Assembly: GCA_023265785.1 (NCBI GenBank)
Contig: JAHFSL010000001.1
Location: 1 to 26,565, forward strand
Direction of reading: 5' to 3'
DNA: 26,565 nt
Source: Candidatus Coatesbacteria bacterium
GTDB lineage: Bacteria > Oederibacteriota > CAKKQC01
Both the position numbers and the translations under genes were made by a program. The stretch's first letter is position 1; each line of letters begins with the position of its first letter. Shown one piece after another: positions 6,062 to 24,103 of the stretch. The notes under the pieces are model-generated. The model was not told the DNA's origin, did no database searches, and saw only the letters and a program-made list of their open reading frames with translations.

Positions 6062-7885
6062 CTAGTCCCCTCCCATGGTCACCCGTTGCACCTCTTCCAC
6101 GGTCGTGCCGCCGTCCTTCCACTTCTGGATCGCGAGGTTACGCAGGGACCGCATGCCCTGGCTCTCCGCCACCTTGCGGATCGTGCTGGAATCGGCGGCC
6201 TCGAAAATCTGCTCGCTCAATTCCGGCGTATTCCGCATCATCTCGTAGATGCCGATCCGCCCCTTGTACCCGGTCATGTTGCACTTGGGGCACCCGGTGC
6301 CCTTGAAGAAGGTGCCGCCTTCCAGCAGGTCCACCGTCAGGTCCGCGCGCACGAGGTCCTCCTCGGTCGGCGTGGTGGGCGTCTTGCAGTCCGCGCAGAT
6401 CCGGCGCATCAGCCGCTGGGCCACGATCAGCCGGACCGCGGTGCCCACGTAGGCCGGCTCGATGCCGATGTCGATGAGGCGGGCGATGGTGCCCGGGGCA
6501 TCGTTGGTGTGCAGGGTGGAAAAGAGCAGGTGGCCGGTCAGGGCCGCCTGCACGGCGATCCGGGCCGTCTCGGCGTCGCGGATCTCGCCGACCATCATGA
6601 CGTTCGGGTCCTGGCGCAGGGCGCTCCGCAGGGCCGTGGCGAAATCCAGCCCGGCTTCGTTGTCCATCTGGACCTGGACCACCCCCGGCATCTCGTACTC
6701 CACCGGGTCCTCCAGGGTGAAGAAGGATTTCTTGGGATCCATGATCGCGGTCAGCGCCGAATAGAGGGTCGTCGTCTTGCCGCTGCCCGTCGGTCCGGTG
6801 TGCAGGATCATCCCGTAGGGCGACCGGATGCACTCGTGGTAGAGGTCCAACTCCTGCGGTTCGAACCCCAGTTTGCGCAGGTCGAGCTGGAGGGAGGACT
6901 GATCCAGGATCCGCATGACGATGTTCTCGCCGTCCATCTGCGGGATCACCGAGACGCGCAGGTCAATGGTGCGGTCGTGCACCTTGATCTTGATCCGGCC
7001 GTCCTGCGGCTTGCGCCGTTCGGTGATGTTCATGTTGGCCATGACCTTGAAGCGCGCGACGACACCCTTCTTCATGGAGGGCGGGGGGGAGGGCATGACC
7101 TGGAGGGCGCCGTCAATCCGGAACCGCACGACGATGCCGCGTTCCGTCGGGTTGATGTGGATGTCGGAGGCGCGGCGCCGGCTGGCCTCGGCGATGATGT
7201 AGTTGCACATCTTCTTGACCGGCTCCTCATTGGCCGCGTCAATGGAGTATTCCTCCCCGCCTTCCATGCTGCCGGCCACCTCGACCGTCTCGTTCATCTG
7301 CGCGATCAGCGCGGCGGGATCCATGGTTTCGGTAATGTCCTGGGTCCCGGGTGGGACGGCCAGGTTGCCCGCGTCCATGACGGTGATTTCGCCCCCGCCC
7401 GCCCCGCCGTTCACCGGCCGCAACGGGCCCGCGCCGGCCCCGGCGGGGTAGAGGGCGCCCAGCGCCTCGGTGATCCGCGACACGGGCGCGACCCGGACGA
7501 CGAATCCGACGCCGGCGGGCAGGCGCGCCAGCCGCCGCAATTCCGCCTGGGCGGTCTGGTCCATCTCGCCGGGATTATCGGTCGCCACGGTCAGGGACTG
7601 CCGGTCGTAGGCGAGGGGAATCATCCGGTACTGGCGCGCGAATTCCGCGGGCACGACCTGCCGGGCGGCGGCCGTGGGCTTGTAGGTGGCGAGGTCGGTG
7701 GTCTCCAGGCCGAACTGGTGGGCCAGGAAGTTGGCGAGGCTCTCTTCCTCGACGATCTTGAGGCCGGTCAGGCTCTGGAGGAGCGAGACCCCCGCATCAC
7801 GCGACTTTCGGAGCGCCTCATCGAGCTGGTCATCACCGATGATGCCTTCCGCCACGAGAATCTGGCCGAGCCGCCGCGGGTCCAT
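6062..7885 (-). CDS. GspE/PulE/PilB-family assembly ATPase with MshEN N-terminal domain (copy 1)
   Basis: Probable start ATG 7885 (MDPRRLGQILVAEGII). ASDIHI, ERRKPQDGRI, GPTGSGKTT, TLEDPVEY, LRQDPNVMMVGEIRD, TGHLLFSTLHTND, CADC...CPKC. TAG stop lies 1 nt before the ATG of the second copy. Confidence 0.93.
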   Translation of the reverse strand: MDPRRLGQILVAEGIIGDDQLDEALRKSRDAGVSLLQSLTGLKIVEEESLANFLAHQFGLETTDLATYKPTAAARQVVPAEFARQYRMIPLAYDRQSLTVATDNPGEMDQTAQAELRRLARLPAGVGFVVRVAPVSRITEALGALYPAGAGAGPLRPVNGGAGGGEITVMDAGNLAVPPGTQDITETMDPAALIAQMNETVEVAGSMEGGEEYSIDAANEEPVKKMCNYIIAEASRRRASDIHINPTERGIVVRFRIDGALQVMPSPPPSMKKGVVARFKVMANMNITERRKPQDGRIKIKVHDRTIDLRVSVIPQMDGENIVMRILDQSSLQLDLRKLGFEPQELDLYHECIRSPYGMILHTGPTGSGKTTTLYSALTAIMDPKKSFFTLEDPVEYEMPGVVQVQMDNEAGLDFATALRSALRQDPNVMMVGEIRDAETARIAVQAALTGHLLFSTLHTNDAPGTIARLIDIGIEPAYVGTAVRLIVAQRLMRRICADCKTPTTPTEEDLVRADLTVDLLEGGTFFKGTGCPKCNMTGYKGRIGIYEMMRNTPELSEQIFEAADSSTIRKVAESQGMRSLRNLAIQKWKDGGTTVEEVQRVTMGGD

Positions 7886-7891
7886 GCCTCC

Positions 7892-7897
7892 ATAGTA
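7892..7897 (-). promoter_or_regulatory. Putative sigma70 -10 element (TACTAT) 6 nt upstream of ATG 7885; leaderless mRNA likely
   Basis: The minus strand reads TACTAT-ggaggc-ATG. The GGAGG is too close to the ATG to act as a normal SD. Confidence 0.5.
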
Positions 7898-7937
7898 TGG
7901 CAAAAGGCGCACCCCCGGAGGTTCCGCCGGTGGGGAA

Positions 7938-8783
7938 TCATTCCTGCGCGGGCGGGGCCGGGCGGATGGCCTCTGCGGGCCGGGCACCCGTATCCACGAG
8001 GAACCGGGCCACGGCACTCGTACCGCTCACCGGGGCGGGGGCGAAAAAGGTCGCCTCCCAGGTTCCCGTGGCCGCCGGCAGGGTGGCCGCCGCGGAAAAC
8101 CTTCCGGCCCGGACGGCGACCGGCACGGTCCACGGCTTCCCGCGGGGTCCCGTCACGGCAAGCCGGAGGGGACCCGCCGTCGCGCCAAGGATTCCGGAAA
8201 AGTGGATGGCCAGCCCGTCGGGGGTCAGGGACGCCCCGGTCCGGGCAAAGCGGAGGTCCTGCCGGGAGAACTCCTGCGCCATCCACACGGTGGGCAGGAG
8301 CACCCGGGAATCCGCGTCGGCCGCCGCCGCCCCCAGGGCGAGACCGATGCCGATGTGGGTCAACCGGGGATCGAGGCAATTCCGGCGGTGCGGCGGGCTT
8401 TCCAGGAGGCGGGTCTGGAGGGTTGCGAGGAGCTCCGCGGGTCCCGCCCCGGGCCGGGAGGACCCGTAGTGCCCCACATTCTCGCCCCAGACGGCATCCG
8501 CCACGCCCGCCAGGGCGAGCCGCGCCTCCGGGGTGCCGTGGGCAAAGGAGGGGGCGCCATGCCCGGTGAATCCCCGGTCCCGCATCCGGTGGGCCTGCTC
8601 GCGGGCCACGCGGGCGAGGACCGGATCGGGGAGGAGCGGTGCCACCCCGGCCGCGGCCCGGGCTTCGTTCACCAGTACGAGCGCCCTCGCCTCCAGCGCG
8701 GAGGAAGCGTCCTGACCGGCGGCGTGGCCCGGGCCGGCCGGGGTGAGGAGCACGGCCAGCAGGGCGCCGTGCCACCGATTCAT
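7938..8783 (-). CDS. Secreted CAP (SCP/Tpx-1/Ag5/PR-1) domain protein with C-terminal extension
   Basis: Signal peptide MNRWHGALLAVLL...GHA. LVLVNEARAAAGVAPL, ARVAREQAHRM, FTGH, WGENV, LLESPPHRRNCL, THIGIG are CAP signatures. Start is uncertain. Confidence 0.85.
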   Translation of the reverse strand: MNRWHGALLAVLLTPAGPGHAAGQDASSALEARALVLVNEARAAAGVAPLLPDPVLARVAREQAHRMRDRGFTGHGAPSFAHGTPEARLALAGVADAVWGENVGHYGSSRPGAGPAELLATLQTRLLESPPHRRNCLDPRLTHIGIGLALGAAAADADSRVLLPTVWMAQEFSRQDLRFARTGASLTPDGLAIHFSGILGATAGPLRLAVTGPRGKPWTVPVAVRAGRFSAAATLPAATGTWEATFFAPAPVSGTSAVARFLVDTGARPAEAIRPAPPAQE

Positions 8784-12854: not shown

Positions 12855-13703
12855 ATGACCGCCGACCGCGTCCTGCGCGTGGGCCACTCTCCCGACCCGG
12901 ATGATGCGTTCATGTTCTATGCGCTGATCCGGGGAAAGGTCACCCTTCCCGGGTTCGGGTTCCGGGATGTCGTCGAGCCCATCGAGGAGCTGAACCGCCG
13001 CGCTCTGGGCGGCGAGCTGGAGGTGACGGCCCTCTCTGCCCATGCCTTCGCCCGGTGCGCGGACCGGTACCGGATCCTCTCCGCGGGGGCCTCGGTGGGA
13101 CGCGGGTACGGGCCACTGCTGGTCGCCCGGGCGGCACGGTCGCTGGCCTCGCTGGCCGGCCGTCCGGTGGCCCTGCCCGGGGAGCTCACCACCGCGGCAC
13201 TGGTGGCGCGGCTGGTCCTGCCAGATGCCGCGTTCGTCCAGGTCCGGTTTGACGAGATTCCCGCGGCGGTCCTCGCGGGCCGGGTGGAGGCCGGGGTGAT
13301 CATCCATGAGGGCCAGCTCACCTGGCAATCGCTGGGACTGGCCCGCCTGCTGGACTTCGGCGAGTGGTGGGCCGGTCAGACCGGGGGCCTGCCGCTTCCG
13401 CTCGGATTGGACGCCGTGCGCGCCGACCTGGGCGAGGAGGCGGCCCGGGCCATGGACCGGGCCCTCAAGGCGTCCATCGCCTACGCCTTCGACCATCCCG
13501 CGGACGCCATGGCCTACGCGCGGGGGTTCGGGCGGGGCATTGACGAGGCGACCAACGATGCCTTTGTCCGGATGTATGTGAACCAGGACACCCGCGCCCT
13601 GCCGCCCGATTGTCTGCAGGCCCTCGACGAGCTGTACCGCCGGGCCGCGGCCGCGGGCCTGCTGGCGGCGGTGCCGGCCGTGCGCGTGGTGGACGGGGGC
13701 TGA
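12855..13703 (+). CDS. mqnD: 1,4-dihydroxy-6-naphthoate synthase (futalosine menaquinone pathway; MqnA/MqnD/SBP family)
   Basis: RVGHSPDPDDAFMFYAL, IEELNRRA, SAGASVGRGYGP, PGELTTA, GVIIHEGQLT, LPLPLG, FVRMYVN are MqnD signatures. Confidence 0.92.
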   Translation: MTADRVLRVGHSPDPDDAFMFYALIRGKVTLPGFGFRDVVEPIEELNRRALGGELEVTALSAHAFARCADRYRILSAGASVGRGYGPLLVARAARSLASLAGRPVALPGELTTAALVARLVLPDAAFVQVRFDEIPAAVLAGRVEAGVIIHEGQLTWQSLGLARLLDFGEWWAGQTGGLPLPLGLDAVRADLGEEAARAMDRALKASIAYAFDHPADAMAYARGFGRGIDEATNDAFVRMYVNQDTRALPPDCLQALDELYRRAAAAGLLAAVPAVRVVDGG

Positions 13704-15052
13704 TGCCGGGTCGGGAGGTCGTCCTGCTCGTGGATGACGACCCGCAGGTGCGTGAGCTCCTCGGCGCGGTGCTGGCCGCCGACGGGCGCACCATCCTGGC
13801 CGCGGCGACGGGTGCGGAAGGGCGGGCGCACTTCCGGCGTGAGGACCTCGCGGTCCTCCTGCTGGACGTCGGCCTGCCGGACGGCTCCGGGCTCGATCTG
13901 CTCGAGGAGGCCCTTGCGGCGGACCGGTCCCGGGTGGTCATCATGCTGACGGGCCAGGCCGAGCAGGAAACCGTCAGCCGGGCGATGAGCCTGGGCGCCA
14001 TGGACTACCTCACCAAGCCCTTTGCCCCGGCCGCCATCCGGGTCATGGTGGACAAGGCGTTGGCGCTCGCCCGGCGCAACCGGGGGAGCCCGCCGGGGGC
14101 GGGCGACCGCGGGGAACCGGGGGCGGTGGAACGCTATCTGGTGGGACGATCGCCCGCGATGCTCGAATTGTACAAGTTGATCGGGCGGCTGGCGTCGAGC
14201 GACCTGCCCGTCCTGATTCGGGGCGAGTCCGGTACGGGCAAGGAATTGGTGGCGCGGGCCCTGCACCATCATGGACGCACGCCTGCGGGGCCCTTCGTCG
14301 CGGTGGATTGCGGGAGCCTGCCCGCGGGCCTGCTCGAATCCGAGTTGTTCGGCCACGAGCGCGGCGCGTTTACGGGGGCCGAGGCGGCCCGGGCGGGCCG
14401 GTTCGAGATGGCGGACGGCGGCACGATCTTCCTCGATGAGATCGCCAACCTGACGCCCGACCTGCAGGCAAAACTGCTGCGGGCGCTCCAGGAGCGGACC
14501 ATCCAGCGGCTCGGGGCCGTGCGGCCCGTGGCCTGGCGCGCGCGCGTGGTGGCGGCCACCAACGCCGGGATCCGGGAGCGGGTGGCGCAGGGCCAGTTCC
14601 GCGAGGACCTCCTGTACCGGCTGGCCGGCGTGGAACTTCGGGTTCCCCCCCTCCGGGAGCGGCGTGAGGATATCCCCGCCCTGGTGGACCATTTCCTCGC
14701 CCGCTGGGCGGCGCAGAAGGGCCCCCTGGCCTTCTCCCCCGCCGCCCTGGCCGCCCTGTCCGCGTGGTCCTGGCCAGGGAATGTGCGGGAGCTCGAGCAT
14801 GCCGTGAATCGGGCGGGCGCCCTGGCCCGCGGCCCGGTCATCGAGGCCGAGGAGGTGGTGGCTGACCTGCGCCCGGGTCCGGCGGGGGCCCCCGTGGCGC
14901 CCCTGCCCGGCCCCGAGGCGGTCCGACCGCTCGACGAGGTCAAACAACGGTATGCCCGGCAGGCCCTCGCGGCGTGCCATGGGAACCGGGCCGAAACCGC
15001 CCGGCGGCTGGGCATCGACCGCAAGACGCTCCTGCACCTGCTCGGCGAGTAG
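13703..15052 (+). CDS. NtrC-family sigma54-dependent response regulator (REC-AAA+-HTH)
   Basis: TGATG overlap. LLVDDD, LLLDVGLPD, YLTKPF; GESGTGKE, ESELFGHERGAFTGA (intact GAFTGA), GTIFLDEI, RVVAATN, FREDLLYRL, WPGNVREL; Fis-type HTH GNRAETARRLGIDRKTL. Confidence 0.96.
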   Translation: MPGREVVLLVDDDPQVRELLGAVLAADGRTILAAATGAEGRAHFRREDLAVLLLDVGLPDGSGLDLLEEALAADRSRVVIMLTGQAEQETVSRAMSLGAMDYLTKPFAPAAIRVMVDKALALARRNRGSPPGAGDRGEPGAVERYLVGRSPAMLELYKLIGRLASSDLPVLIRGESGTGKELVARALHHHGRTPAGPFVAVDCGSLPAGLLESELFGHERGAFTGAEAARAGRFEMADGGTIFLDEIANLTPDLQAKLLRALQERTIQRLGAVRPVAWRARVVAATNAGIRERVAQGQFREDLLYRLAGVELRVPPLRERREDIPALVDHFLARWAAQKGPLAFSPAALAALSAWSWPGNVRELEHAVNRAGALARGPVIEAEEVVADLRPGPAGAPVAPLPGPEAVRPLDEVKQRYARQALAACHGNRAETARRLGIDRKTLLHLLGE

Positions 15053-15054
15053 GC

Positions 15055-15094
15055 CCGGGAGAAATTCCTTTCCCCCCGGGAATAATTCCCGGGG
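15055..15094. promoter_or_regulatory. Two candidate enhancer (UAS) sites for a sigma54 activator, 21 bp apart
   Basis: CCGGGA-gaa-ATTCC (15055-15068) and CCGGGA-ata-ATTCC (15076-15089). The second lies in a perfect inverted repeat CCCCGGGAAT-A-ATTCCCGGGG (15074-15094). Centres are at about -107 and -86 from the predicted sigma54 start. Confidence 0.65.
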
Positions 15095-15142
15095 CGGCCC
15101 GCGGGTCGGGCCCCTGCGTGGAGGCCTGCGGTCCCCGGAGGA

Positions 15143-15160
15143 TTGGCACGGCCGTTGCAT
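15143..15160 (+). promoter_or_regulatory. sigma54 (RpoN) -24/-12 promoter
   Basis: TTGGCACG-GCCG-TTGCAT matches the TGGCACG-N4-TTGCW consensus exactly, with GG-N10-GC spacing. It lies directly downstream of a GAFTGA-containing activator gene. Predicted +1 is about 15170. Confidence 0.88.
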
Positions 15161-15172
15161 TGGGAAGGTGGC

Positions 15173-15502
15173 ATGGAACACCTGAACGCCCACCCCTCCT
15201 CCCGTGCGGCGATTGCCGGCCCGGGTTGTACCTTTGAATGGAACGCCCGTCTGGACGGTCCCCAGCGCCGGCTCGCCGTCCGGTTCGCGCTGAACATGTC
15301 CGCCCGCGTCCGGTTGACGCTCACCTCGGCGCTGTCCGATGACGGCAAGGTGCTGTTCGACGCTCCCCGGTCGGCCGGGAGCTTTGCCGAGACCTGGGAG
15401 ATGGTGAACTCCCGGGGGCAGAAGCTGGCCCCGGGCATGTACCTGGTGGCGCTTGCGCTCGACGGGGAAGCCGTCAGCGAGGCGCTGGTCATCCGGTCAT
15501 GA
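15173..15502 (+). CDS. Stand-alone FlgD-like Ig domain (T9SS-type sorting-domain-like) protein
   Basis: AVRFALNMSARVRLTL...GKVL...AGSFAETWEMVNSRGQKLAPGMYLVAL follows the FlgD_ig pattern (I.F.L...V.L.I...G..V...G.....WDG.N..G..V..G.Y). The ORF-track start 15143 falls inside the sigma54 promoter, so ATG 15173 is preferred. Confidence 0.65.
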   Translation: MEHLNAHPSSRAAIAGPGCTFEWNARLDGPQRRLAVRFALNMSARVRLTLTSALSDDGKVLFDAPRSAGSFAETWEMVNSRGQKLAPGMYLVALALDGEAVSEALVIRS

Positions 15503-17022
15503 CGGCCTTGTCCGCTCCGCACTCCCGGCCCGCGCGGGTCGTGGTGGCCCTGACCGGGCTCCTGGTGGCGGGCCCGGTGCTGGCGGCGGCTGACTGGGGC
15601 GGGCTGGGTCACGCCGGCCAGCCGCTGGCCGCCGGCGCCGAGCCGGCGGCGGCATACCTCTCTGCCGACCGGGTCCTCCTGGCGGCGGGCCGGACGGCGG
15701 AGGATGGCCGGGCCCGGCTCTACGCCTGGACGCGGCAATCCGGCGACTGGTCGCCGCTCGCCGGCGGGGCGGCCCTGGACGCGACGGAGGGCCGGGATAC
15801 GCGCGCGGCCGCCGTGGCGACCGATGGGCAGGGTCACGCGGCGGTGGTGTACGCGGGATTCGAGGGCGGCGCGTGGCGCTTGTATGGGCGCTGGTTTGAC
15901 GGGGCCAATTTTCTCCCGCTGAACGGCGGCCAGCCGGTGGACCGCGGCCTTCCGGGCAATGCCTTCGCCTCCTCGGCGGCATTCCTGGACGCGGGCACGC
16001 TCGCCCTCGCCCTCACGCAGTTTGACGGGCGGCGGACGGCCCTGTTTGTCCGCACCTTCGACGGGGCCGGCTGGGCGGATGAGAACGGTGGGGCGGCCCT
16101 GGATGACCCGGCCGGCGGGTGGACGGAGTCGCCGGTCCTTGCGGCGGCGCCCGATGGGACGGCGGCCGTCGCCTTCGTGCAGGGCGGGACGCTCGGGATC
16201 GTCCGCCTCGCGGCCGGCCGCTGGTCGCGCCTGCCGGCACCGGGCGTTCCCGCGCACACCGCCGGGGCCTCCGCCCCCGCCGCCGGCTTCCTGCCGGACG
16301 GGCGGCTGGTCGTGGCCGTCCTGCGTGAGACCGGCGAGGGCGTCTCCCGCGTCTTCGCCTCCACATGGGATGGGACGGCCTGGCGCGAGGCCAACGGGGG
16401 GGCGCCGGTGGACGACAGCGCGTCCGGGGTGGCAGGGCTCGCCCTGGCGCGGGACGGGGCGCAGGCCGTGCAGATTGCCTATGTGGCTCTTGATGCGGAG
16501 GGTGGCACCACGGTTCGGGCCGTGCGGCTCGAGGGGGTGGCCGTCTCGTCCGTCAACGGGGGCGCGGCCCTCGAGGCGCCGGGCGCGGGTCCCGTGACGG
16601 CGGTCGCCCTGGCGGTGGCTCCGGGCGGGGAGGGGACCGCAGGCCTGCTGGCCATGGCCAGCGGGAGCGGCGGGGTGTATGTCCGGGAGCGGACGGAGGC
16701 GCCGCGTGCGGCGGCACCTGCCGCCGGACCGGCGGAGCGCCCCGCGGGCGTGCGGGTCGTCGGCGGGGTCCTGCACGCGGGTCGGGGCGAATCCACGCGG
16801 GTGCAGGTGGGGCTGGACCGCGGCCAGCGCGTCCGCGTGGACATCACGACGCTGACGGGATCGCTGGTCCGCGTCCTGGCGGATGGTCCGGCGGCCGGGA
16901 GCCTGGACCTGGCGTGGGATGGCCGCAATGAGGACGGCCTGCTCGTGGCGCCGGGGGCCTACCGGCTGGTGACGCGCGGGGAGACGCTCCGGAGCGCACG
17001 CCTCCTCGTGGTGGTGCGGTGA
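15499..17022 (+). CDS. Secreted repeat (probable beta-propeller) protein with C-terminal FlgD-like Ig domain
   Basis: Signal peptide ...VVVALTGLLVAGPVLA. Repeats of the type W-x3-(N/A)GG-x-(A/P)-(L/V)-D. C-terminus RVRVDITTLTGSLVRVL...LAWDGRNEDGLLVAPGAYRLV is FlgD_ig-like. ATGA overlap. Confidence 0.7.
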   Translation: MTALSAPHSRPARVVVALTGLLVAGPVLAAADWGGLGHAGQPLAAGAEPAAAYLSADRVLLAAGRTAEDGRARLYAWTRQSGDWSPLAGGAALDATEGRDTRAAAVATDGQGHAAVVYAGFEGGAWRLYGRWFDGANFLPLNGGQPVDRGLPGNAFASSAAFLDAGTLALALTQFDGRRTALFVRTFDGAGWADENGGAALDDPAGGWTESPVLAAAPDGTAAVAFVQGGTLGIVRLAAGRWSRLPAPGVPAHTAGASAPAAGFLPDGRLVVAVLRETGEGVSRVFASTWDGTAWREANGGAPVDDSASGVAGLALARDGAQAVQIAYVALDAEGGTTVRAVRLEGVAVSSVNGGAALEAPGAGPVTAVALAVAPGGEGTAGLLAMASGSGGVYVRERTEAPRAAAPAAGPAERPAGVRVVGGVLHAGRGESTRVQVGLDRGQRVRVDITTLTGSLVRVLADGPAAGSLDLAWDGRNEDGLLVAPGAYRLVTRGETLRSARLLVVVR

Positions 17023-17948
17023 GCCGCCCCGGAACCGGTCCGGCGGTGGGCCGCGCGTTGGCGGGGGCCCTGGCCGCGGGGTTCATCCTCCTCGGGCGGA
17101 CGGCGCGCGGGGAGGACTCCGGCCTCGGCGCGGGCCAGGCCCTGGACCTCATGGGATCGGCCCGGTCGGCGGCGCTGGCGGCCGATACCGCCGCCGGCGA
17201 GGGGGTCTCGGGGCTGGCCGTCAATCCCGCCGCCCTCGCGGGTCAACAGCGCCCGGCGGGCGCCGGGACGATGGTCGGCGGGCTGGGCGGCGCCCGCGTG
17301 GGCCAGGTGGCGGCGGCCGTTCCCACCCCCGCGGGCACGCTGGCCTTCGGCCTGGGGGCCGCGGATGCGGGGGACATCGAGCTGGACGACGCGTCCGGAA
17401 ATTCCCGGACGGTTCCCGCCCAGCGGGATGTCCTCGCCACGGTGGGGTTCGGCCGGCGTCTCGCGGCGGGCGTGGAGGCCGGGGTGGCCGTGACATCGTA
17501 CCGGTCCACCCTCGCCGGGACTTACAGCGCCCGGACGGTGGCGGGAGACGCCGGGATCCGCTGGACCAGCGGCGATGGCGCCGTGGCGCTGGGGCTCGTC
17601 CTCGCCCGGTACGGCCGCGGGCTGGCCTACGCCGGTGAGCGGGTGGCCCTGGCCCGCACGACTCGCCTGGGCGCCGCGTGGCGGCCCGTCCAGGGCAGGG
17701 CGCTCGCGGTGGTCCTGGCCACGGACTACGGTGCCGCGGCCTTCGGTCCCGACACGCTCGGGGCCGGCGCGGAGCTGGTCGGACTGGGTGTCCTCGCCCT
17801 GCGGGCGGGGGTGAGTGTGCTGGGCGGGGTGGCGACAGCCGGGGCCGGCATGGGGCTGGCGCTTGGCCGCCTCCGGTTCGACTACGCGCTGGCCGCGCCC
17901 GCGCGGGTGGCGCCGGTGTCCCGTGCCACGCTCACGGTGGCGCTCTGA
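17019..17948 (+). CDS. PorV/PorQ (UPF0164)-like outer-membrane beta-barrel protein
   Basis: Signal peptide, then ALDLMGSARSAALA...GLAVNPAALA (compare FLxIxxGARAxxMG...xxNPAGLA), alternating beta strands, LALRAG...GAGMGL...RFDYA...RATLTVAL at the end. GTGA overlap. Confidence 0.7.
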   Translation: MSRPGTGPAVGRALAGALAAGFILLGRTARGEDSGLGAGQALDLMGSARSAALAADTAAGEGVSGLAVNPAALAGQQRPAGAGTMVGGLGGARVGQVAAAVPTPAGTLAFGLGAADAGDIELDDASGNSRTVPAQRDVLATVGFGRRLAAGVEAGVAVTSYRSTLAGTYSARTVAGDAGIRWTSGDGAVALGLVLARYGRGLAYAGERVALARTTRLGAAWRPVQGRALAVVLATDYGAAAFGPDTLGAGAELVGLGVLALRAGVSVLGGVATAGAGMGLALGRLRFDYALAAPARVAPVSRATLTVAL

Positions 17949-18697
17949 TGCCCAGCGTCAGCCCCGGGCGGCAGGCCCCGGAACAACTCCTCCTGCGCCT
18001 GCGGCGTATCGGCTGGCTGTTCGCGCTGTTCTTTACGGTCCTGTTCGCCGCGGTCCACTGGATCGTCGAGGATGTCCGCGACGCCGTGGTGACGCTCCGG
18101 CCCGGGACGGATCTGGTGGCGCGCGTGGATGATGCCGCCACCCGGCTCGACGCGGCCCTGGGCGTGGCCGCGGTCAGCCTGCTCCCGGTCTTCGCCCTGG
18201 CGTGGATGCTGGCCCGGCGGTACGTCAAGCGCAACCATCTGCAGGAGCTCGGCGAAGCCAGTTTCCGCAAGTCCCAGTTCGTGACCATGGCGACGATGGA
18301 GGAGGCGGTGCGCGGGGTGATTGCCGTGGCGGAGCGCAAGGGCGTCCGGGTGGCCGTGACGGGTTCCACGCACGCGTGGGTGGCGGCCGACCGCCTGCGC
18401 GTCCGGCAGGTGACCCTGAACCTGCTGGTCAACGCGGTCAACGCCAGCCCGCGGGGCAGTGTGGTGGAGTGCCAGGTCGAGCCGGATGGGCCGCACATCC
18501 GCGTCTCGGTGGCCGACGCGGGCCGGGGCATCCCCGAACAGGAACTGCCGCGCCTCATCAGCGACCTCCGCCAGGTGCGCAGTGCCCGGGCCGTGCGGGA
18601 GGGCCTGGGGCTGGACCTGTCGGTGTGCCGCCGGCTGATCGAGCTCAATGGTGGCCGGATCTGGGCGGAGAACGACCCGGCGGCCGGCGGGAATTAG
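17948..18697 (+). CDS. Two-TM sensor fused to a degenerate HATPase_c domain, lacking the DHp/phospho-His region (pseudokinase or decayed kinase)
   Basis: Two TMs (IGWLFALFFTVLFAAVHWI; ALGVAAVSLLPVFALAWML); N box RQVTLNLLVNAV, G1 VADAGRGIP, G2 GLGLDLSVCRRL, GGRIWAE. No H-box. Ends at a TAG in frame with the next gene. Confidence 0.7.
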   Translation: MPSVSPGRQAPEQLLLRLRRIGWLFALFFTVLFAAVHWIVEDVRDAVVTLRPGTDLVARVDDAATRLDAALGVAAVSLLPVFALAWMLARRYVKRNHLQELGEASFRKSQFVTMATMEEAVRGVIAVAERKGVRVAVTGSTHAWVAADRLRVRQVTLNLLVNAVNASPRGSVVECQVEPDGPHIRVSVADAGRGIPEQELPRLISDLRQVRSARAVREGLGLDLSVCRRLIELNGGRIWAENDPAAGGN

Positions 18698-18700
18698 CCG

Positions 18701-19900
18701 GTGCGTGGGGAGCAGGCGGAATTCATCCGGCAGGCCCGGATCCTGGTGGTGGACGACGACGAGGCGTGCCGCAACCTGCTGGCCGCCTTCCTGGCGCCGA
18801 TCGGGTGCGCGGTCACCCAGGCCGCGGACGGCCGGGAGGCGCTCGAGCGGCTGGAGGACGGGTCCTGGGACGTGGTCCTGCTGGACCTCATCATGCCGGG
18901 CCTCTCCGGGTTCGAGGTTCTGGCCCGCATCCGCGAGACCCGGCCGCAGGAGGTCCTGCCGGTCATCCTGATCACCGGCCAGGATGACGCGGACACCCGG
19001 ATGGAGGCGCTGGCCCTCCGCGCGAACGACTTCCTGGCGAAGCCGATCCACCACGCCGAGGTGATGGCGCGCATGGGGACCATCCTGGCCATGCACTGGG
19101 CGCGCGAGGAACTGGAGGAGCGGCTGACGGAACTGCGGAACGCGCAGGACCTCAAGGACCTGCTGATCAACTGCGTCATCCACGACCTCAAGGGGCCGCT
19201 CACGAGCGCCAAGGGCAATATCGAACTCGCGCTGGACCGCCTGCCGGACGGCCCGGCCGCCCGGCAGTTGCGGCGGGCGGCGGACGCCATTGACCGGACC
19301 GTGGGGATGGCCGCGGACGCGGTGGCCGTCGCGCGCATGGAGGAGGAGAAGCTCCGGCCCGCGGCAACGCCGTTCGATGCGGCCGCGCTCGTCCGCCAGC
19401 GCGTCGACGTCCTGCAGGGCATGGCGGCCACCCGTGAGGTCGCGTTGGTCGGGCCGGAGCCCGGCGCGGAGGCTCCGGCGGCGCGCGGCGATGAGGGGCT
19501 GATGGCGCGGGTCCTCGACAACCTGATCGTCAACGCCCTCAAGCACACCCCGGCAGGGGGGCGGGTGACGGTCGGCGCGGAGCGCGGACCGGAGGGCACC
19601 GTCACCTTCGCCGTGGTGGACACCGGGGAGGGCATCCCCGCGGCCTGGCTCCACCGGATCTTTGATAAATTTTCCCAGGTGGAAATGCGGCGGAAGGGGC
19701 TGGGGACCGACACCGGACTGGGGCTCACCTTCTGCAAGCTGGCCGTGGAGGCCCAGGGCGGCCGGATCGAGGTGGACAGTGAGCCGGGGACCGGCTCCAC
19801 CTTCCGGGTGAGCCTGCCGGGAGCCGTCGCCAGCGAACCGGCGGCGCTGGAATCCGTCGTCAGGTGGCAAACCGCCGCCGGGGTGGCCGCGGTCGCCTGA
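18701..19900 (+). CDS. Cytoplasmic hybrid histidine kinase (REC-HisKA-HATPase_c)
   Basis: RILVVDDD, VLLDLIMP, FLAKP; H-box VIHDLKGPL; NLIVNALKHT, DTGEGIP, IFDKFSQV, TGLGLTFCK, GSTFRVSLP. Confidence 0.92.
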   Translation: MRGEQAEFIRQARILVVDDDEACRNLLAAFLAPIGCAVTQAADGREALERLEDGSWDVVLLDLIMPGLSGFEVLARIRETRPQEVLPVILITGQDDADTRMEALALRANDFLAKPIHHAEVMARMGTILAMHWAREELEERLTELRNAQDLKDLLINCVIHDLKGPLTSAKGNIELALDRLPDGPAARQLRRAADAIDRTVGMAADAVAVARMEEEKLRPAATPFDAAALVRQRVDVLQGMAATREVALVGPEPGAEAPAARGDEGLMARVLDNLIVNALKHTPAGGRVTVGAERGPEGTVTFAVVDTGEGIPAAWLHRIFDKFSQVEMRRKGLGTDTGLGLTFCKLAVEAQGGRIEVDSEPGTGSTFRVSLPGAVASEPAALESVVRWQTAAGVAAVA

Positions 19901-19967: not shown

Positions 19968-20867
19968 ATGGGCCTGATCGCCGGGTCCGCCTTCGCGTCC
20001 GCCGTGGACACCCTGAAGTTTCCCCCGACCTCGTTCCCCAAGGGCAAGCCGGTCCAGAAGAACCTGGACACGCACTACATCCACCTGGCGGGCCTGTTCC
20101 GCAGCCTGGCGTCCGAGGGATTCGGCGGCATCGTCCTGATGGTCTTCGAGGACGGCTCGGAGGCCCTGATCGTGTTCCGCGAGGGCACCATCATCACCGC
20201 GTACCACGCCGGGCCCGAGGGTCGGAAGGTCGGCCTGCCCGCCCTGACGCAGGCCATCGTCCAGGCCCGCCAGATCCGGGCCTATGTGGATGTCTTCAAG
20301 CTGGAGCACGAGATCCTGGTGGCCATCCTGCCCCTCCTGCACGGCGTGCAGGTGCCGACGCAGGCGAAGGGGCAGTCGCTCGAGGAGCGGCTCGCCGAAT
20401 TCAAGAAGGCGGAGTTCGTCGGGGCCATCGTGGTGGGGGAGCAGGTTCCCGAATCCATCGGCTTGATCTACGCCGGGATCCCCATGGGCTGGTTTGACGC
20501 GCAGGGGACGGAATCCGAGACCGGATCCCAGCCTCCACCCCACCGGTCCCTCACGGTCCGCGCCTTTGCCCTGGAGGGGGCGGATACCTTCGCGGCCATC
20601 AACCTGGCGCTCGACAAGCAGATCGTCGCCGGCAGGATCCGGGAGGTGCTCGAGAAGGACCTGCACGAATTCGGGCTCGTCCTGTATGCCCGCGGCCTGG
20701 CGGCGCGCGAGGTGGTGGAGGAATCCAGGGCCAGCAAGGCCCAGTTCACCGGGCTGATCGAGGACATTGAGCGGGCGGTCGGCGTCCTGCGCGGACCGGC
20801 GCCGGCCCGGCGGCTGGCCGCCGACCTGCACGGGGTCGTGGACGCGATGATTGACGTGGGGTTCTAG
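19968..20867 (+). CDS. Protein with two tandem DUF4388/PATAN-like domains and a helical C-terminal domain
   Basis: Repeat 1 LAGLFRSLASEGFGGIVLMVFEDGSEALIVFREGTIITAY; repeat 2 LEERLAEFKKAEFVGAIVVGEQVPESIGLIYAGIPMG. Both fit the L..L..L....F.G.+.......G.+.F..G.+..A pattern. Recognised by pattern only. Confidence 0.55.
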   Translation: MGLIAGSAFASAVDTLKFPPTSFPKGKPVQKNLDTHYIHLAGLFRSLASEGFGGIVLMVFEDGSEALIVFREGTIITAYHAGPEGRKVGLPALTQAIVQARQIRAYVDVFKLEHEILVAILPLLHGVQVPTQAKGQSLEERLAEFKKAEFVGAIVVGEQVPESIGLIYAGIPMGWFDAQGTESETGSQPPPHRSLTVRAFALEGADTFAAINLALDKQIVAGRIREVLEKDLHEFGLVLYARGLAAREVVEESRASKAQFTGLIEDIERAVGVLRGPAPARRLAADLHGVVDAMIDVGF

Positions 20868-20953
20868 CCATGAAGAAACCTGATCGGGAATGCGACGCCT
20901 CAACGGCCGCCGGGCACCCGGCACAGCCGGGCGCCCGGCGCGAAGCCTAGACG

Positions 20954-21331
20954 ATGCAATTCACGAACCGGGAATATTTTCTCTTCGTGGTCGTGACGAA
21001 CTACCTCACGATTATCAGCGGGGTGCTGTTCCTGCTGGCCTTCATCCTGCTCGGCCTGCTCGCGCTCCGGGTCACGCGCGTGTTCGGGGTCAAGACCCAC
21101 TGGCCCCTGCTGTTCCTGGGCCCCGTCGGGGCCATCATGTACTCGGTGTACACCATCGTGCACGGCGGAGGCCCGTCGGGATCCAAGGAGGCCTACGCGC
21201 TCGAGCGCTGGGTGGCGTACGGCGCGTTCCTGGCGGGCGGCCTGTTGTGCTGGTGGGGGGTGTACCGGTTCCACCGGTCGCTGGATGGGCTGGTGCGCGA
21301 GGGCCGGGACGTCGGAAAGAAATATGGTTGA
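20954..21331 (+). CDS. Small integral membrane protein (3 TM), unknown function
   Basis: Three hydrophobic segments; FG-x4-W loop motif; overlaps the next gene by 8 nt. Confidence 0.75.
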   Translation: MQFTNREYFLFVVVTNYLTIISGVLFLLAFILLGLLALRVTRVFGVKTHWPLLFLGPVGAIMYSVYTIVHGGGPSGSKEAYALERWVAYGAFLAGGLLCWWGVYRFHRSLDGLVREGRDVGKKYG

Positions 21332-21686
21332 GGCGCTGTCCGAGATCCCATCCGACTACCTGGTCTACGAGGCCGGCGGGCTGGTCTTCTTCTTTGCCCT
21401 GCTCGGGTTCACCTATACGTCGCGTCGGTTGATGGCCCTCTTCGGCCGGGGCGCGTTCTGGCTCCTGCCGCTGGTGGGCGCCCTGTGCATGGTGGCCGTC
21501 GTGGGCCTGCACTTCTATGCGAACGTCTGGTATCCCATGGAGCATGCGGGCGACCCCGGCCTGACCGCCGCCATCTACCGCTTCCGGTTCGTGGCCCTGA
21601 TCGCCCTGCTGGCGTCCAGCGTCACCACGGTGCTGGGCGCGGTCCTGCTCTGGATGATGTTCACCGGGTTCCGGGTCCGGGGTTAG
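21324..21686 (+). CDS. Small integral membrane protein (3 TM), apparent paralogue of the preceding gene
   Basis: ATG 21324 after GGAAAGA; three hydrophobic segments; same FG-x4-W loop. Confidence 0.75.
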   Translation: MVEALSEIPSDYLVYEAGGLVFFFALLGFTYTSRRLMALFGRGAFWLLPLVGALCMVAVVGLHFYANVWYPMEHAGDPGLTAAIYRFRFVALIALLASSVTTVLGAVLLWMMFTGFRVRG

Positions 21687-21688
21687 CC

Positions 21689-22264
21689 GTGGCCGTCCAT
21701 CACATTCCCGGCCGCGAGATCGTCTACAAGGTGGCCTATCACGGGCCCGGAATGTGCGGGAAAACGACCAATCTCCGGTTCATCTATAACACCCTGCCGG
21801 GCCGGCAGGTTGGGAACTTCCTGGTTCTCGACACGGCCGTCGAGCGCACGCTGTACTACGACTTTCTGCCGGTGGTCATCCCGGTTGAGGACGGCTACAA
21901 GGTCCGCTTTCATCTGTATACGGTGCCCGGCCAGCCCTACTACGACGCCAGCCGCAAGCTGGTCCTGAAGGGCGTGGATGGCGTCGTGTTTGTCGCGGAT
22001 TCCCACCCCGAGCGCATGAACGAGAACCTGGACTCGCTGACGATGCTGAAGAAGGACCTGCACGAGGTGGGACTGGACTACACGACCCTTCCGCTCATCA
22101 TGCAGTACAACAAGCGGGACCTGCCCACCCCCCTGGCCATGAACCTGCTTGACGAAAAGTTGAACGAGACGAAGGCCCCGGTGTTCGGCGCGGTGGCACG
22201 GGACGGGATGGGCGTGTTCGAGACCCTGGCGGCCATGGCCGAGATGATCACCCGGAAGGCCTGA
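21689..22264 (+). CDS. mglA: MglA-family small Ras-like GTPase
   Basis: GTG start 2 nt after the upstream stop. REIVYKVAYHGPGMCGKTTNL, ERTLYYDFLP (intrinsic Arg finger), RFHLYTVPGQ, YDASRKLVLKGVDGVVFVADS, QYNKRDLP, GVFETL; nearly colinear with Myxococcus MglA. Confidence 0.95.
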   Translation: MAVHHIPGREIVYKVAYHGPGMCGKTTNLRFIYNTLPGRQVGNFLVLDTAVERTLYYDFLPVVIPVEDGYKVRFHLYTVPGQPYYDASRKLVLKGVDGVVFVADSHPERMNENLDSLTMLKKDLHEVGLDYTTLPLIMQYNKRDLPTPLAMNLLDEKLNETKAPVFGAVARDGMGVFETLAAMAEMITRKA

Positions 22265-22268
22265 CCCC

Positions 22269-22643
22269 GTGTCCCTCAAGGCGCTTGAACTCAATGCGGG
22301 CGATGTGGAACTGATGGAGGCTGAATTGCGGACGCTTTGTGCCCGCGCGGGCGCCGAGTCGGTCGTCCTCCTCGACCTGTCGGGGGTGATCCTGGCGGGC
22401 CACCGCCTGCCGGAAAAGGTGGATACGCTCCTGTTTGCCGCCCTCCTGACCTCCAACTTCGCGGCGACCGAGGAACTGTCCCGGCGGCTGGGTGTCACCT
22501 CCTTCCGGGTCATGTATCACGAGGGCAAGCGCCAGAACATCTATTTCGACAAGGTGGCCGAGGAGACGATTCTGGTCGTGCTCTTCCGGGACTCCAACGC
22601 GCTGGGCCGGGTCCGGCTCTTCACCGAGAAGTCGGTGACCTAG
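22269..22643 (+). CDS. mglB: MglB/roadblock-LC7 protein, apparently interrupted by an in-frame TAG (frame continues to 22769)
   Basis: VVLLDLSGVILAG, LFAALLTSNFAATEELSRRLG, FRVMYHEGKRQNIYF, ILVVLF...LGRVRL. TAG 22641-22643 falls in the last roadblock helix, and 41 more in-frame codons follow. Confidence 0.8.
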   Translation: MSLKALELNAGDVELMEAELRTLCARAGAESVVLLDLSGVILAGHRLPEKVDTLLFAALLTSNFAATEELSRRLGVTSFRVMYHEGKRQNIYFDKVAEETILVVLFRDSNALGRVRLFTEKSVT

Positions 22644-22774
22644 CTGGGCAAGCTGGTTGCCGCGGTGACGAAACCCGAGGGGGAGCGGCTGGACCTGGCC
22701 GCGGGCCGCCAGGCGGCCGCGTGGCTGGCCCAGGTCGCCAATACGATTCAGCCCGGAAAGTTGGCCTAGGAATT

Positions 22775-24103
22775 ATGGAAGCAACGATTGATATTCGGAC
22801 CGCTGACGGCAACGTCAATATCCTGCTGGAGGATGCCCAGGTCGGGCAGTTGCGCGAGGTCCTGGTGGACCTCTCGCTGGCCACCAGCGCGGTCTTTGCC
22901 ATGCTGATTGACGCGGCCGGGCGCGTCGTGGCCACGGGCGGCCAGACGAGCGAATTCGAGCTGGAGGCTATTGCGGCCCTGGCCGCCGGCGACCTGGCAA
23001 CCACCCGCCAGCTGGCCTCCATGCTCAACGAGCCCGAATTCTCGCTCCTCTTCCAGCACGAGAAGCAGAAGAACCTCTTCATGACCGCCATTGAGAGCGA
23101 CGCGATCCTGATCGTGGTCTTCGACGTGGACACGACGTTCGGGGCCCTGCGCCTGCGGATTCGCCGGTCCATTTCCCAGCTCTCGTCCATCCTGCACCAG
23201 GCCAAACGCAACACGCTGGTCGCGTTGTCCTCCTCCTCGGCGATCTCGGGCGCCGAGGATCTCCATGCGGGGGATGACCTCTCGGCGGTGGCCGAGCCGG
23301 AGGCTCCGCCGCCGATGGAAACCCGGGCGGCACCGGTTGCGCCCGCGCCCCGGGGGCCGGTGGCGGAGGCGGTCCCCTCCGAGTCACCGGGACCCGACGC
23401 CGGCGTGGTGGCGCCGCCGCCCGCTCCGGCGATGGCGTCCGGCCTTCCGGAGAACCTCGTCGCCGAGATGCGCAAGGCCCTGGGCTGGTTCGAGACCTTC
23501 CAGGGGTGGAAACTGGTCTTTGCCGACGAGATTGAATTCCTCCAGCGGGGCATCGAGCGCGGCCGGGCGGAAGAGACGGAGACCCTCCGCTCCATTTTCC
23601 TGCGGACGCGGGCCCGGCTCACGGAGCAAAAGCGCCTGCTGGAGGCGCGGTTCCGGCTGATCCAGAGCCTCTACCAGCAGTTCGTCGTCTCACTCCAGAC
23701 GACGATGGCGGGCGCGTGGCACGACGAGATCGTGGACCGCGCGATGAAGGCCGCGTTCTCCGGCGTGGGCCAGGACCACAATCTGGTGGGCTCGGGTGTG
23801 TCCAAGCGGGAGGGGGCCTGGAGCTTCGACTTCCAGCTCATCGGCAAACAGCTGGTGACGGTCTGCCACAGCCGCGGCTGGACCTACCACCAGGGGATGC
23901 TGGAGGTCCTGCGGCAGTTGAACGCGGCACTGTCGGCGCTGTCCGCATTTATCATCGAGGACGCCAAACTGCGCGAGGAACTCACCCGGCAGTGGGCCCG
24001 GCTGTACCGCCACTATGCCGATGGACTCAAGACCCTCGAGCTGGAGGCGGAGGTCCTTGACCTCTTCCGCCCCCTTGTCCGGACCGGCTCGCTTCCTAAA
24101 TAG
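22775..24103 (+). CDS. MglB/roadblock domain fused via a Pro/Ala-rich linker to an unknown helical domain
   Basis: ATG 22775 after TAGGA. AMLIDAAGRVVATGGQT, AIAALAAGDLATTRQLASMLNEPEFSLLFQ, NLFMT, ILIVVFD..TTFGALRLRIRR are canonical MglB features. The C-terminal ~220 aa are not recognised. Confidence 0.82.
   Translation: MEATIDIRTADGNVNILLEDAQVGQLREVLVDLSLATSAVFAMLIDAAGRVVATGGQTSEFELEAIAALAAGDLATTRQLASMLNEPEFSLLFQHEKQKNLFMTAIESDAILIVVFDVDTTFGALRLRIRRSISQLSSILHQAKRNTLVALSSSSAISGAEDLHAGDDLSAVAEPEAPPPMETRAAPVAPAPRGPVAEAVPSESPGPDAGVVAPPPAPAMASGLPENLVAEMRKALGWFETFQGWKLVFADEIEFLQRGIERGRAEETETLRSIFLRTRARLTEQKRLLEARFRLIQSLYQQFVVSLQTTMAGAWHDEIVDRAMKAAFSGVGQDHNLVGSGVSKREGAWSFDFQLIGKQLVTVCHSRGWTYHQGMLEVLRQLNAALSALSAFIIEDAKLREELTRQWARLYRHYADGLKTLELEAEVLDLFRPLVRTGSLPK

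Follow-up and report, generated by a model that had tools for sequence, protein, structure and literature searches.

A candidate sigma-54 switch with paired GGGA/TCCC sites between an NtrC-family activator gene and a secreted-protein and PorV-like cassette of Candidatus Coatesbacteria

Between positions 13703 and 19900 of the 26,565-nt stretch of Candidatus Coatesbacteria DNA analysed here (the window), a gene for an NtrC-family activator is followed by a sigma-54 promoter and five tightly coupled genes, g1 to g5. The locus raises two questions: does this activator switch on the adjacent operon, and which kinase speaks to the activator? The window is contig C339 of a 3.34-Mb metagenome-assembled genome (MAG; G000; 674 contigs, 69% GC, 83% complete, 5% estimated contamination), and its host lineage is an uncultured groundwater bacterium known from metagenomes alone. 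We conclude, with a probability of about three in four, that the locus is an NtrC-type sigma-54 switch, in which the adjacent activator acts through two sites on the g1-g5 operon and also on a second promoter elsewhere in the MAG, in front of a sensor histidine kinase gene that we call HK-S.

The regulatory part of the locus comprises the following features:

13703..15052, plus strand: activator, an NtrC-family response-regulator enhancer-binding protein of 449 aa (Pfam, NCBIfam, translation).
15057..15069, no strand: candidate distal enhancer site GGGAGAAATTCCT, centre 15063, about -107 from the predicted start.
15074..15094, no strand: candidate proximal enhancer site with core GGGAATAATTCCC at 15078-15090, centre 15084, about -86.
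15144..15158, plus strand: sigma-54 promoter TGGCAC-N5-TTGC, with -24 GG and -12 GC and 10 of 10 consensus positions.
15170, plus strand: predicted transcription start, placed by the usual sigma-54 spacing, 12 nt downstream of the C in the -12 GC.

The two sites contain GGGAGAAATTCC at 15057-15068 and GGGAATAATTCC at 15078-15089, 21 bp apart from start to start, and a perfect 10-1-10 palindrome encloses the proximal site (15074-15094). The promoter is made up of TGGCAC (15144-15149), five intervening bases and TTGC (15155-15158), and a scan of 14800-15600 called no sigma-70-like promoter and no intrinsic terminator. An earlier note, made from the sequence alone, had described an activator with an intact GAFTGA motif, two sites 21 bp apart, a perfect 21-bp palindrome and a consensus -24/-12 promoter, and we found all of them where that note had placed them. 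The five genes are likewise as tightly coupled as it had claimed: g1 and g2 overlap in ATGA and g2 and g3 in GTGA, g3 and g4 share one base, and g4 and g5 lie 3 nt apart. In a DNA run from the source sample, a minor variant (depth 2 of 8.6) shows one extra C in the C-run at 15071-15077; lying between the sites, it would shift their spacing from 21 to 22 bp.

The evidence that carries our reading is conservation. Genome and metagenome scans yielded four orthologous loci, namely L022 in the sister-genus MAG G002, the metagenome contigs L025 and L026, and L039 in an NCBI MAG (a word-indexed protein search with g2 matched g2 alone). In each of them the orthologous activator (55-63% identical; that of G002 carries the NCBI label Candidatus Coatesbacteria) adjoins the same target genes, and the recognition region of the helix-turn-helix (HTH) is conserved across these activators. 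Counting from a predicted start 12 nt 3' of the -12 GC, we found that seven promoters from five genomes or contigs share one design, a -24/-12 element with two sites of the 13-bp consensus GGGArwNwyTCCC (of which GGGA-N3-ATTCC is the local form) at -104 to -108 and at -83 to -87. These are the promoters of the window, L022, L026 and L025, the two promoters of L039 (before g1 and before g2) and one on contig C432 of G000; the -24/-12 element is conserved in L022, L026, L025 and, twice, in L039, and C432 carries a related element. For the window and its orthologous loci the site positions are:

Window promoter: distal site -107, proximal site -86.
L022 promoter: distal site -106, proximal site -86.
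L026 promoter: distal site -106, proximal site -85.
L025 promoter: distal site about -106 (GGAATTCC, read by eye and unlisted by the scan), proximal site -84.
L039 promoter before g1: distal site -105, proximal site -85.
L039 promoter before g2: distal site -108, proximal site -87.

The design holds where the surroundings differ. In L025 the intergenic region is about 580 bp long, and the sites keep their distance from the promoter though they lie about 460 bp from the activator stop. The flanks of the G002 locus differ from those of the window (a group II intron reverse transcriptase gene lies upstream), yet the activator, the promoter, g2, g3 and g5 stay together. L039 shares both window flanks, with a menaquinone-pathway gene upstream and PATAN-like and MglA/MglB genes downstream, and there g1 and g2 each have their own complete sigma-54 promoter and site pair. 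A divergent REC-kinase paralogue beside the activator in L022 and L026 is preceded by promoters with the same motif at -96/-115. Because promoter, site sequence and site-to-promoter geometry are conserved across the orthologous loci, the sigma-54 unit is held to be real and its sites most likely bind the adjacent activator. Sigma-54 control of the adjacent operon, as the earlier note had proposed, is thus strongly supported by the seven promoters, and also by rpoN, whose absence the note had named as fatal to the idea: the gene is present at G000:C530, full length and with no stops, at 402 bits against TIGR02395 (curated cut-off 277).

Other homologues of the activator were rejected as members of this group. 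The cassette does not follow those of G004 (63%) and G001 (61%); the former is followed by a convergent gene and the latter by a receiver protein that resembles g5 in its receiver only. The homologues in L040 and L042 (54-56%) lie in other contexts. The L040 homologue (7001-8332, 56% identical) stops before the HTH, with no HTH_8 match, and about 2 kb from it, on the other strand, a promoter with a -105/-85 site pair drives genes for a 164-aa protein, a receiver and a 294-aa protein. In L022 (2993-4942), the group II intron reverse transcriptase/maturase gene lies between the activator and the divergent sigma-54 promoter of the REC-kinase paralogue.

How unusual is this arrangement within the MAG itself? 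Taken one at a time, a site or the promoter is nothing rare there; it is their combination that is rare. Matches to GGGA-N3-ATTCC number 43 and those to the exact promoter consensus 10, while the generalised form GGGA-N5-TCCC is present 123 times, compared with 125-136 times in shuffled sequence. The genome scan for a regulon that the earlier note had suggested was therefore run differently: GGGA-N3-ATTCC, uninformative alone with its 43 matches, was replaced as a probe by pairs of GGGA-N5-TCCC combined with promoter geometry (GG-N10-GC elements with at least 7 of 10 consensus positions, and a pair of sites spaced by 19-23 bp and located between -75 and -115). In this form the scan picked out the window (36.1) and C432 (39.8) alone, the next best score in the whole MAG being 15.5; because the weight matrix was built with the window and C432 sites included, the absolute scores are circular, but the gap to the third match is not. 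A third close site pair, on C341, was discarded as it has no sigma-54 element in register. The promoter on C432 (locus L027, 552-700, minus strand) reads TGGCAT-N5-CTGC and has two exact GGGA-N5-TCCC sites, 21 bp apart, at -104 and -83. It drives HK-S, a histidine kinase with two transmembrane helices and the canonical H-box AHELRTPLNG, whose gene runs off the contig end. A SRAP-like gene (MCGRY...) diverges from HK-S on the same contig.

The activator has what such a switch demands of it. Its open reading frame runs from ATG at 13703 to TAG at 15050-15052 and encodes the Pfam domains Response_reg (PF00072, 1e-22), Sigma54_activat (PF00158, 1.6e-63), AAA_lid_14 and HTH_8 (PF02954, 1.2e-07). 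The motifs GHERGAFTGA, Walker A GESGTGKE and Walker B FLDEI are intact in the translation, which also shows the receiver positions DDD, LLLD, T and K, the phospho-acceptor Asp included. The best NCBIfam matches were AtoC (402 bits, cut-off 714), NtrC (379, cut-off 559) and the PEP-CTERM regulator PEP_resp_reg (361, cut-off 503), all far under their equivalog cut-offs, and judged by these scores the activator does not count as an equivalog of a named regulator. The ATG of its gene overlaps the stop of the preceding gene, VitK2_biosynth of the menaquinone pathway, an arrangement repeated in L039. Since the activator gene overlaps that stop and lies outside the sigma-54 promoter, the protein is probably made constitutively, from a transcript shared with the upstream gene; the gene is not behind the sigma-54 promoter, and so is not autoregulated.

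The operon that the promoter would serve consists of five genes, all with a GC content at third codon positions of 0.86-0.93 (g1, 0.86):

15173..15502, plus strand: g1, 109 aa, a free-standing FlgD-Ig/C-terminal-domain (CTD)-like domain with no signal peptide (aligns to the g2 tail).
15499..17022, plus strand: g2, 507 aa, predicted secreted cargo with signal peptide, propeller and a FlgD-Ig/type IX secretion system (T9SS)-type tail (Pfam, atlas, AlphaFold2 model).
17019..17948, plus strand: g3, 309 aa, PorV/PorQ-like outer-membrane barrel with signal peptide (NF033709, atlas neighbours).
17948..18697, plus strand: g4, two transmembrane helices and HATPase_c, no HisKA or H-box (domain search, alignment to HK-S).
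18701..19900, plus strand: g5, REC-HisKA-HATPase kinase with intact H-box IHDLKGPL and receiver Asp, no sensor domain (domain search, motifs).

In the mechanism that we propose, phosphorylation of its receiver would make the activator active, and activator dimers would bind the two palindromic 13-bp sites, whose centres lie about 107 and 86 bp 5' of the start and which their 21-bp spacing would set on one face of the helix. At these sites the activator would oligomerise and, by hydrolysing ATP and through its GAFTGA loop, open the sigma-54 promoter (15144-15158). This would switch on one transcript, g1-g5, for the tail-like domain, the propeller protein, its PorV-like partner, a kinase paralogue that lacks the dimerisation and histidine phosphotransfer (DHp) domain, and the REC-histidine kinase. 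The same activator would also switch on the C432 promoter and with it HK-S, and so feed back on the input layer. We infer binding by this activator, the start site, the single transcript and the identity of the kinase. The regulon would include signalling kinases, and because the same site pair precedes kinase genes (those of the operon and HK-S), feedback on the signalling layer is likely. The positive feedback of the earlier note is therefore kept for the signalling layer but not for the activator, which is not itself autoregulated.

Several observations weigh against this reading. The predicted start leaves about 3 nt before the g1 ATG (15173), which stands only 14 nt after the -12 GC, and excludes GGAAGG, the ribosome-binding-site look-alike of g1; by contrast, the leader of the g1 orthologue of L039 is 35 nt long and includes GGAGG. 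The contig C432 measures 2.5 kb, and as contamination of the MAG is estimated at 5%, it is not sure to belong to the same genome and might in principle stem from a contaminating strain; moreover, the HK-S promoters in G002 and G004 do not have the site-pair design. L039 keeps the activator, the sites, g1, g2 and g3 without g4 or g5, and an in-operon kinase is thus not required. The RNA evidence consists of two short assembled contigs from a metatranscriptome library of the same study, which match 15479-15631 (within g1/g2) and 16406-16585 (within g2) without mismatch and show no 5' ends; they hint that g2 is expressed in situ, and they could derive from DNA in the library. Lastly, the closest activator paralogue in the MAG, the C444 protein, is 50% identical to the window activator and has an HTH region close to that of the orthologue group, and it could share the sites.

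It might be this paralogue, with its own upstream kinase, that binds the sites, and the adjacency of the sites and the window activator gene would then be coincidental. We think this very unlikely, because in five independent loci, whose flanks differ, the site pair accompanies the orthologous activator gene, and the sigma-54 promoter before the C444 kinase-activator genes has no such sites. Even less weight falls on the idea that the palindrome and repeat are a transcription terminator or a generic repeat and that the promoter is served by a remote activator. The palindrome does start 22 nt after the stop codon and could form a 9-bp GC-rich RNA hairpin, but it has no T-run and was not called as a terminator by the scan, the second site makes a poor hairpin, and what is conserved is the GGGA/TCCC half-sites and their distance to the promoter, not hairpin strength. 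Furthermore, the same pairs are found where no gene ends nearby, in the divergent region of C432, before g2 in L039 and, in L025, about 460 bp from the stop, while the exact sites occur no more often than in shuffled sequence and so are not a dispersed repeat. We give this explanation hardly any credence, and retain the NtrC-type switch worked by the adjacent activator.

Which kinase, then, would phosphorylate that activator? The earlier note had the operon encode the kinase for its own activator, and on this account the circuit would be closed within 13703-19900, with g5 as dedicated kinase, simple positive feedback and no other locus. There are grounds for it: g5 is found in three of the four complete orthologous loci (the window, L022 in G002, and L026), each time after g3; its H-box and catalytic boxes are intact; and no kinase gene lies directly upstream of the window activator, unlike four paralogous activators in the MAG that have one (C444, C423, C98 and C16). 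However, g5 has no sensor domain and begins with a receiver of its own, so that it needs an upstream input, and L039 has activator, sites and g1-g3 with the kinase absent. At another locus, a genuine sensor kinase, HK-S, lies behind the second promoter with this site pair, and in G003, of a sister genus, an operon under a sigma-54 promoter combines an HK-S homologue with a receiver protein and a 45%-identical activator. We consequently hold a closed circuit to be doubtful. The synteny of g5 in three loci speaks for an operon-encoded kinase, while L039, HK-S and G003 point elsewhere. "Complete, self-contained", as the earlier note had put it, has to be given up, as g5 lacks an input domain, g4 lacks a phospho-acceptor domain and the second target promoter drives HK-S, the sole intact sensor-type kinase of the set. 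On sequence grounds, direct phosphorylation by HK-S would be the leading candidate, if short of even odds, and direct phosphorylation by g5 a less probable one; the rest goes to a relay from HK-S through g5 to the activator, or to another kinase.

The product of g4, described earlier as a sensor-like protein, aligns to the HK-S of G002 at residues 165-263 (the two-transmembrane sensor part) and 324-469 (the ATPase), skipping HisKA. By this alignment g4 is an HK-S paralogue with the DHp domain deleted and no acceptor histidine, and the former description is to be corrected to a histidine-kinase paralogue without HisKA. It is absent from all the orthologous loci (L022, L025, L026 and L039). Readthrough of a TAG codon joining g4 to g5 was considered and judged unlikely, since the orthologues of g5 begin as genes of their own immediately behind g3, and since the g4 ATPase domain would not regain its missing end by readthrough. 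The TAG of the activator sits about where three of the four orthologous activators end (that of L025 runs about 10 aa further), which also counts against TAG readthrough.

What would the switch turn on? The AlphaFold2 model of g2 (predicted local distance difference test score 81, predicted template modelling score 0.70) shows a six-bladed propeller at about residues 31-400, a low-confidence linker and a C-terminal beta-sandwich at 415-507, behind a signal-peptide-like N-terminus. In the Protein Data Bank, the propeller is best matched by propellers of the sialidase, BNR and GH145 types, with identities of 10-17%. The tail matches FlgD_ig with 28.2 bits (cut-off 27) over residues 432-490, TIGR04183 gives no match at the g2 locus, and the nearest atlas clusters of g2 combine FlgD_ig with Por_Secre_tail and are commonest in Candidatus Eiseniibacteriota and other phyla of the FCB (Fibrobacteres-Chlorobi-Bacteroidetes) group. 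The g1 orthologue of L039 (8514-8849) is likewise a free-standing FlgD-Ig/CTD-like tail. We found that g3 matches NF033709 along its full length (model positions 5-324, E 8.8e-18) with 65 bits, under the strict-membership cut-off of 90, and that its atlas neighbours are PorV/PorQ clusters at 0.97-0.98; it thus resembles the PorV/PorQ family and is called PorV/PorQ-like here. Orthologues of g3 follow g2 in L022, L026 and L039. The surface-protein export module of the earlier note accordingly survives as a secreted protein with a PorV-like barrel, that is, as cargo and shuttle-like barrel, and not as a secretion machine.

The g2-g3 pair has company. In the MAG, PorV-family matches number about 40 and FlgD_ig tails about 32, with at least 16 adjacent tail-then-barrel pairs by coordinates, g2-g3 being one of them (the contigs include C109, C44, C517, C28, C16, C507, C94, C500, C98, C204, C338, C405, C358, C78 and C554). 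At least three other activator genes in the MAG adjoin a cargo-barrel cassette. On C16 (L028, 908-5406), a HAMP kinase gene and an activator gene are followed by TGGCAC-N5-ATGC and a gene for a secreted SBBP propeller protein; on C28 (L029, 1398-5207), a weaker GG-N10-GC element, a gene for a FlgD_ig-tailed protein and a PorV-like gene come after an activator gene. As for the secretion machine, in this 83% complete MAG SprA-like fragments lie on C500 (E 9e-30) and C32 (1.5e-27), below the cut-off of TIGR04189, and a search for PorU returned tail-domain matches only. The Pfam model SprA_N was uninformative, with no match in any control genome, and TIGR04189 was used in its place.

A wider proposal is that individual type-IX-like cargo/PorV-like shuttle cassettes of this FCB-group lineage might each be under their own sigma-54 two-component circuit, with a regulon that includes g1 as a possible decoy or checkpoint for the shuttle or the secretion signal. 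We regard it as speculative and improbable; if true, such cassette-by-cassette sigma-54 circuits would be an undescribed regulatory layer for type IX secretion.

The regulatory design is an ordinary, textbook one. In NtrC-family systems, two dyad sites on one helical face lie about 80-150 bp upstream of a GG-N10-GC promoter, and sigma-54 is required. The window activator, with REC, AAA+ (GAFTGA) and Fis-type HTH, is like those of the enteric NtrB/NtrC-glnAp2 system and like DctD, ZraR and AtoC. Unlike the NtrB/NtrC type, it has no upstream-adjacent kinase gene and is coupled instead to a menaquinone-pathway gene, and its site sequence, GGGArwNwyTCCC, and its targets (secreted propeller, PorV-like barrel, kinases) are its own. 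It is, in short, an NtrC-family regulator with a new operator and new targets. The Nla proteins of Myxococcus xanthus are many paralogous activators that act at sigma-54 promoters of nearby surface or developmental genes, some of them with non-adjacent or hybrid kinases; they belong to a different phylum and are likened here by layout only, the window targets being type-IX-like cargo and barrel pairs. In Porphyromonas gingivalis, PorX/PorY and SigP provide two-component control of type IX secretion genes, the components of the machine, and PorX is not an AAA+ protein and SigP is an extracytoplasmic function (ECF) sigma factor, whereas the window activator is an AAA+ enhancer-binding protein that would act with sigma-54 on one cargo-shuttle pair.

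On the output side the likeness is to Flavobacterium johnsoniae and Porphyromonas gingivalis, where type B CTD cargo has cognate PorP/SprF-like shuttle genes (PMC12618676, PMC9143113). As in those pairs, the cargo gene lies immediately upstream of its own barrel gene and there are many pairs per genome. Unlike them, the window barrel scores as PorV/PorQ, the tail scores as FlgD_ig and resembles type A, and the host lies outside Bacteroidota. Neither of these two papers (PMC12618676, PMC9143113) describes control by a sigma-54 activator, and literature searches on sigma-54 with type IX secretion and on Eisenbacteria with secretion found no such circuit. What the locus offers is sigma-54 control tied to type-IX-like cargo and shuttle pairs outside Bacteroidota, in the shape of a fully specified, testable cis-regulatory model with its activator, 13-bp operator, fixed -106/-85 geometry and two-promoter regulon; the operator consensus can be used for regulon annotation in related MAGs. 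The gain is one of annotation and a clean experimental handle, not a new principle.

Beyond the cassette, PATAN-like, paired 3-TM (three transmembrane helices), MglA-like and MglB-like genes follow at 19968-24103 in the window and at 11705-15350 in L039. In L039, the PATAN-like to MglB-like genes stand directly after g3, with no kinases between.

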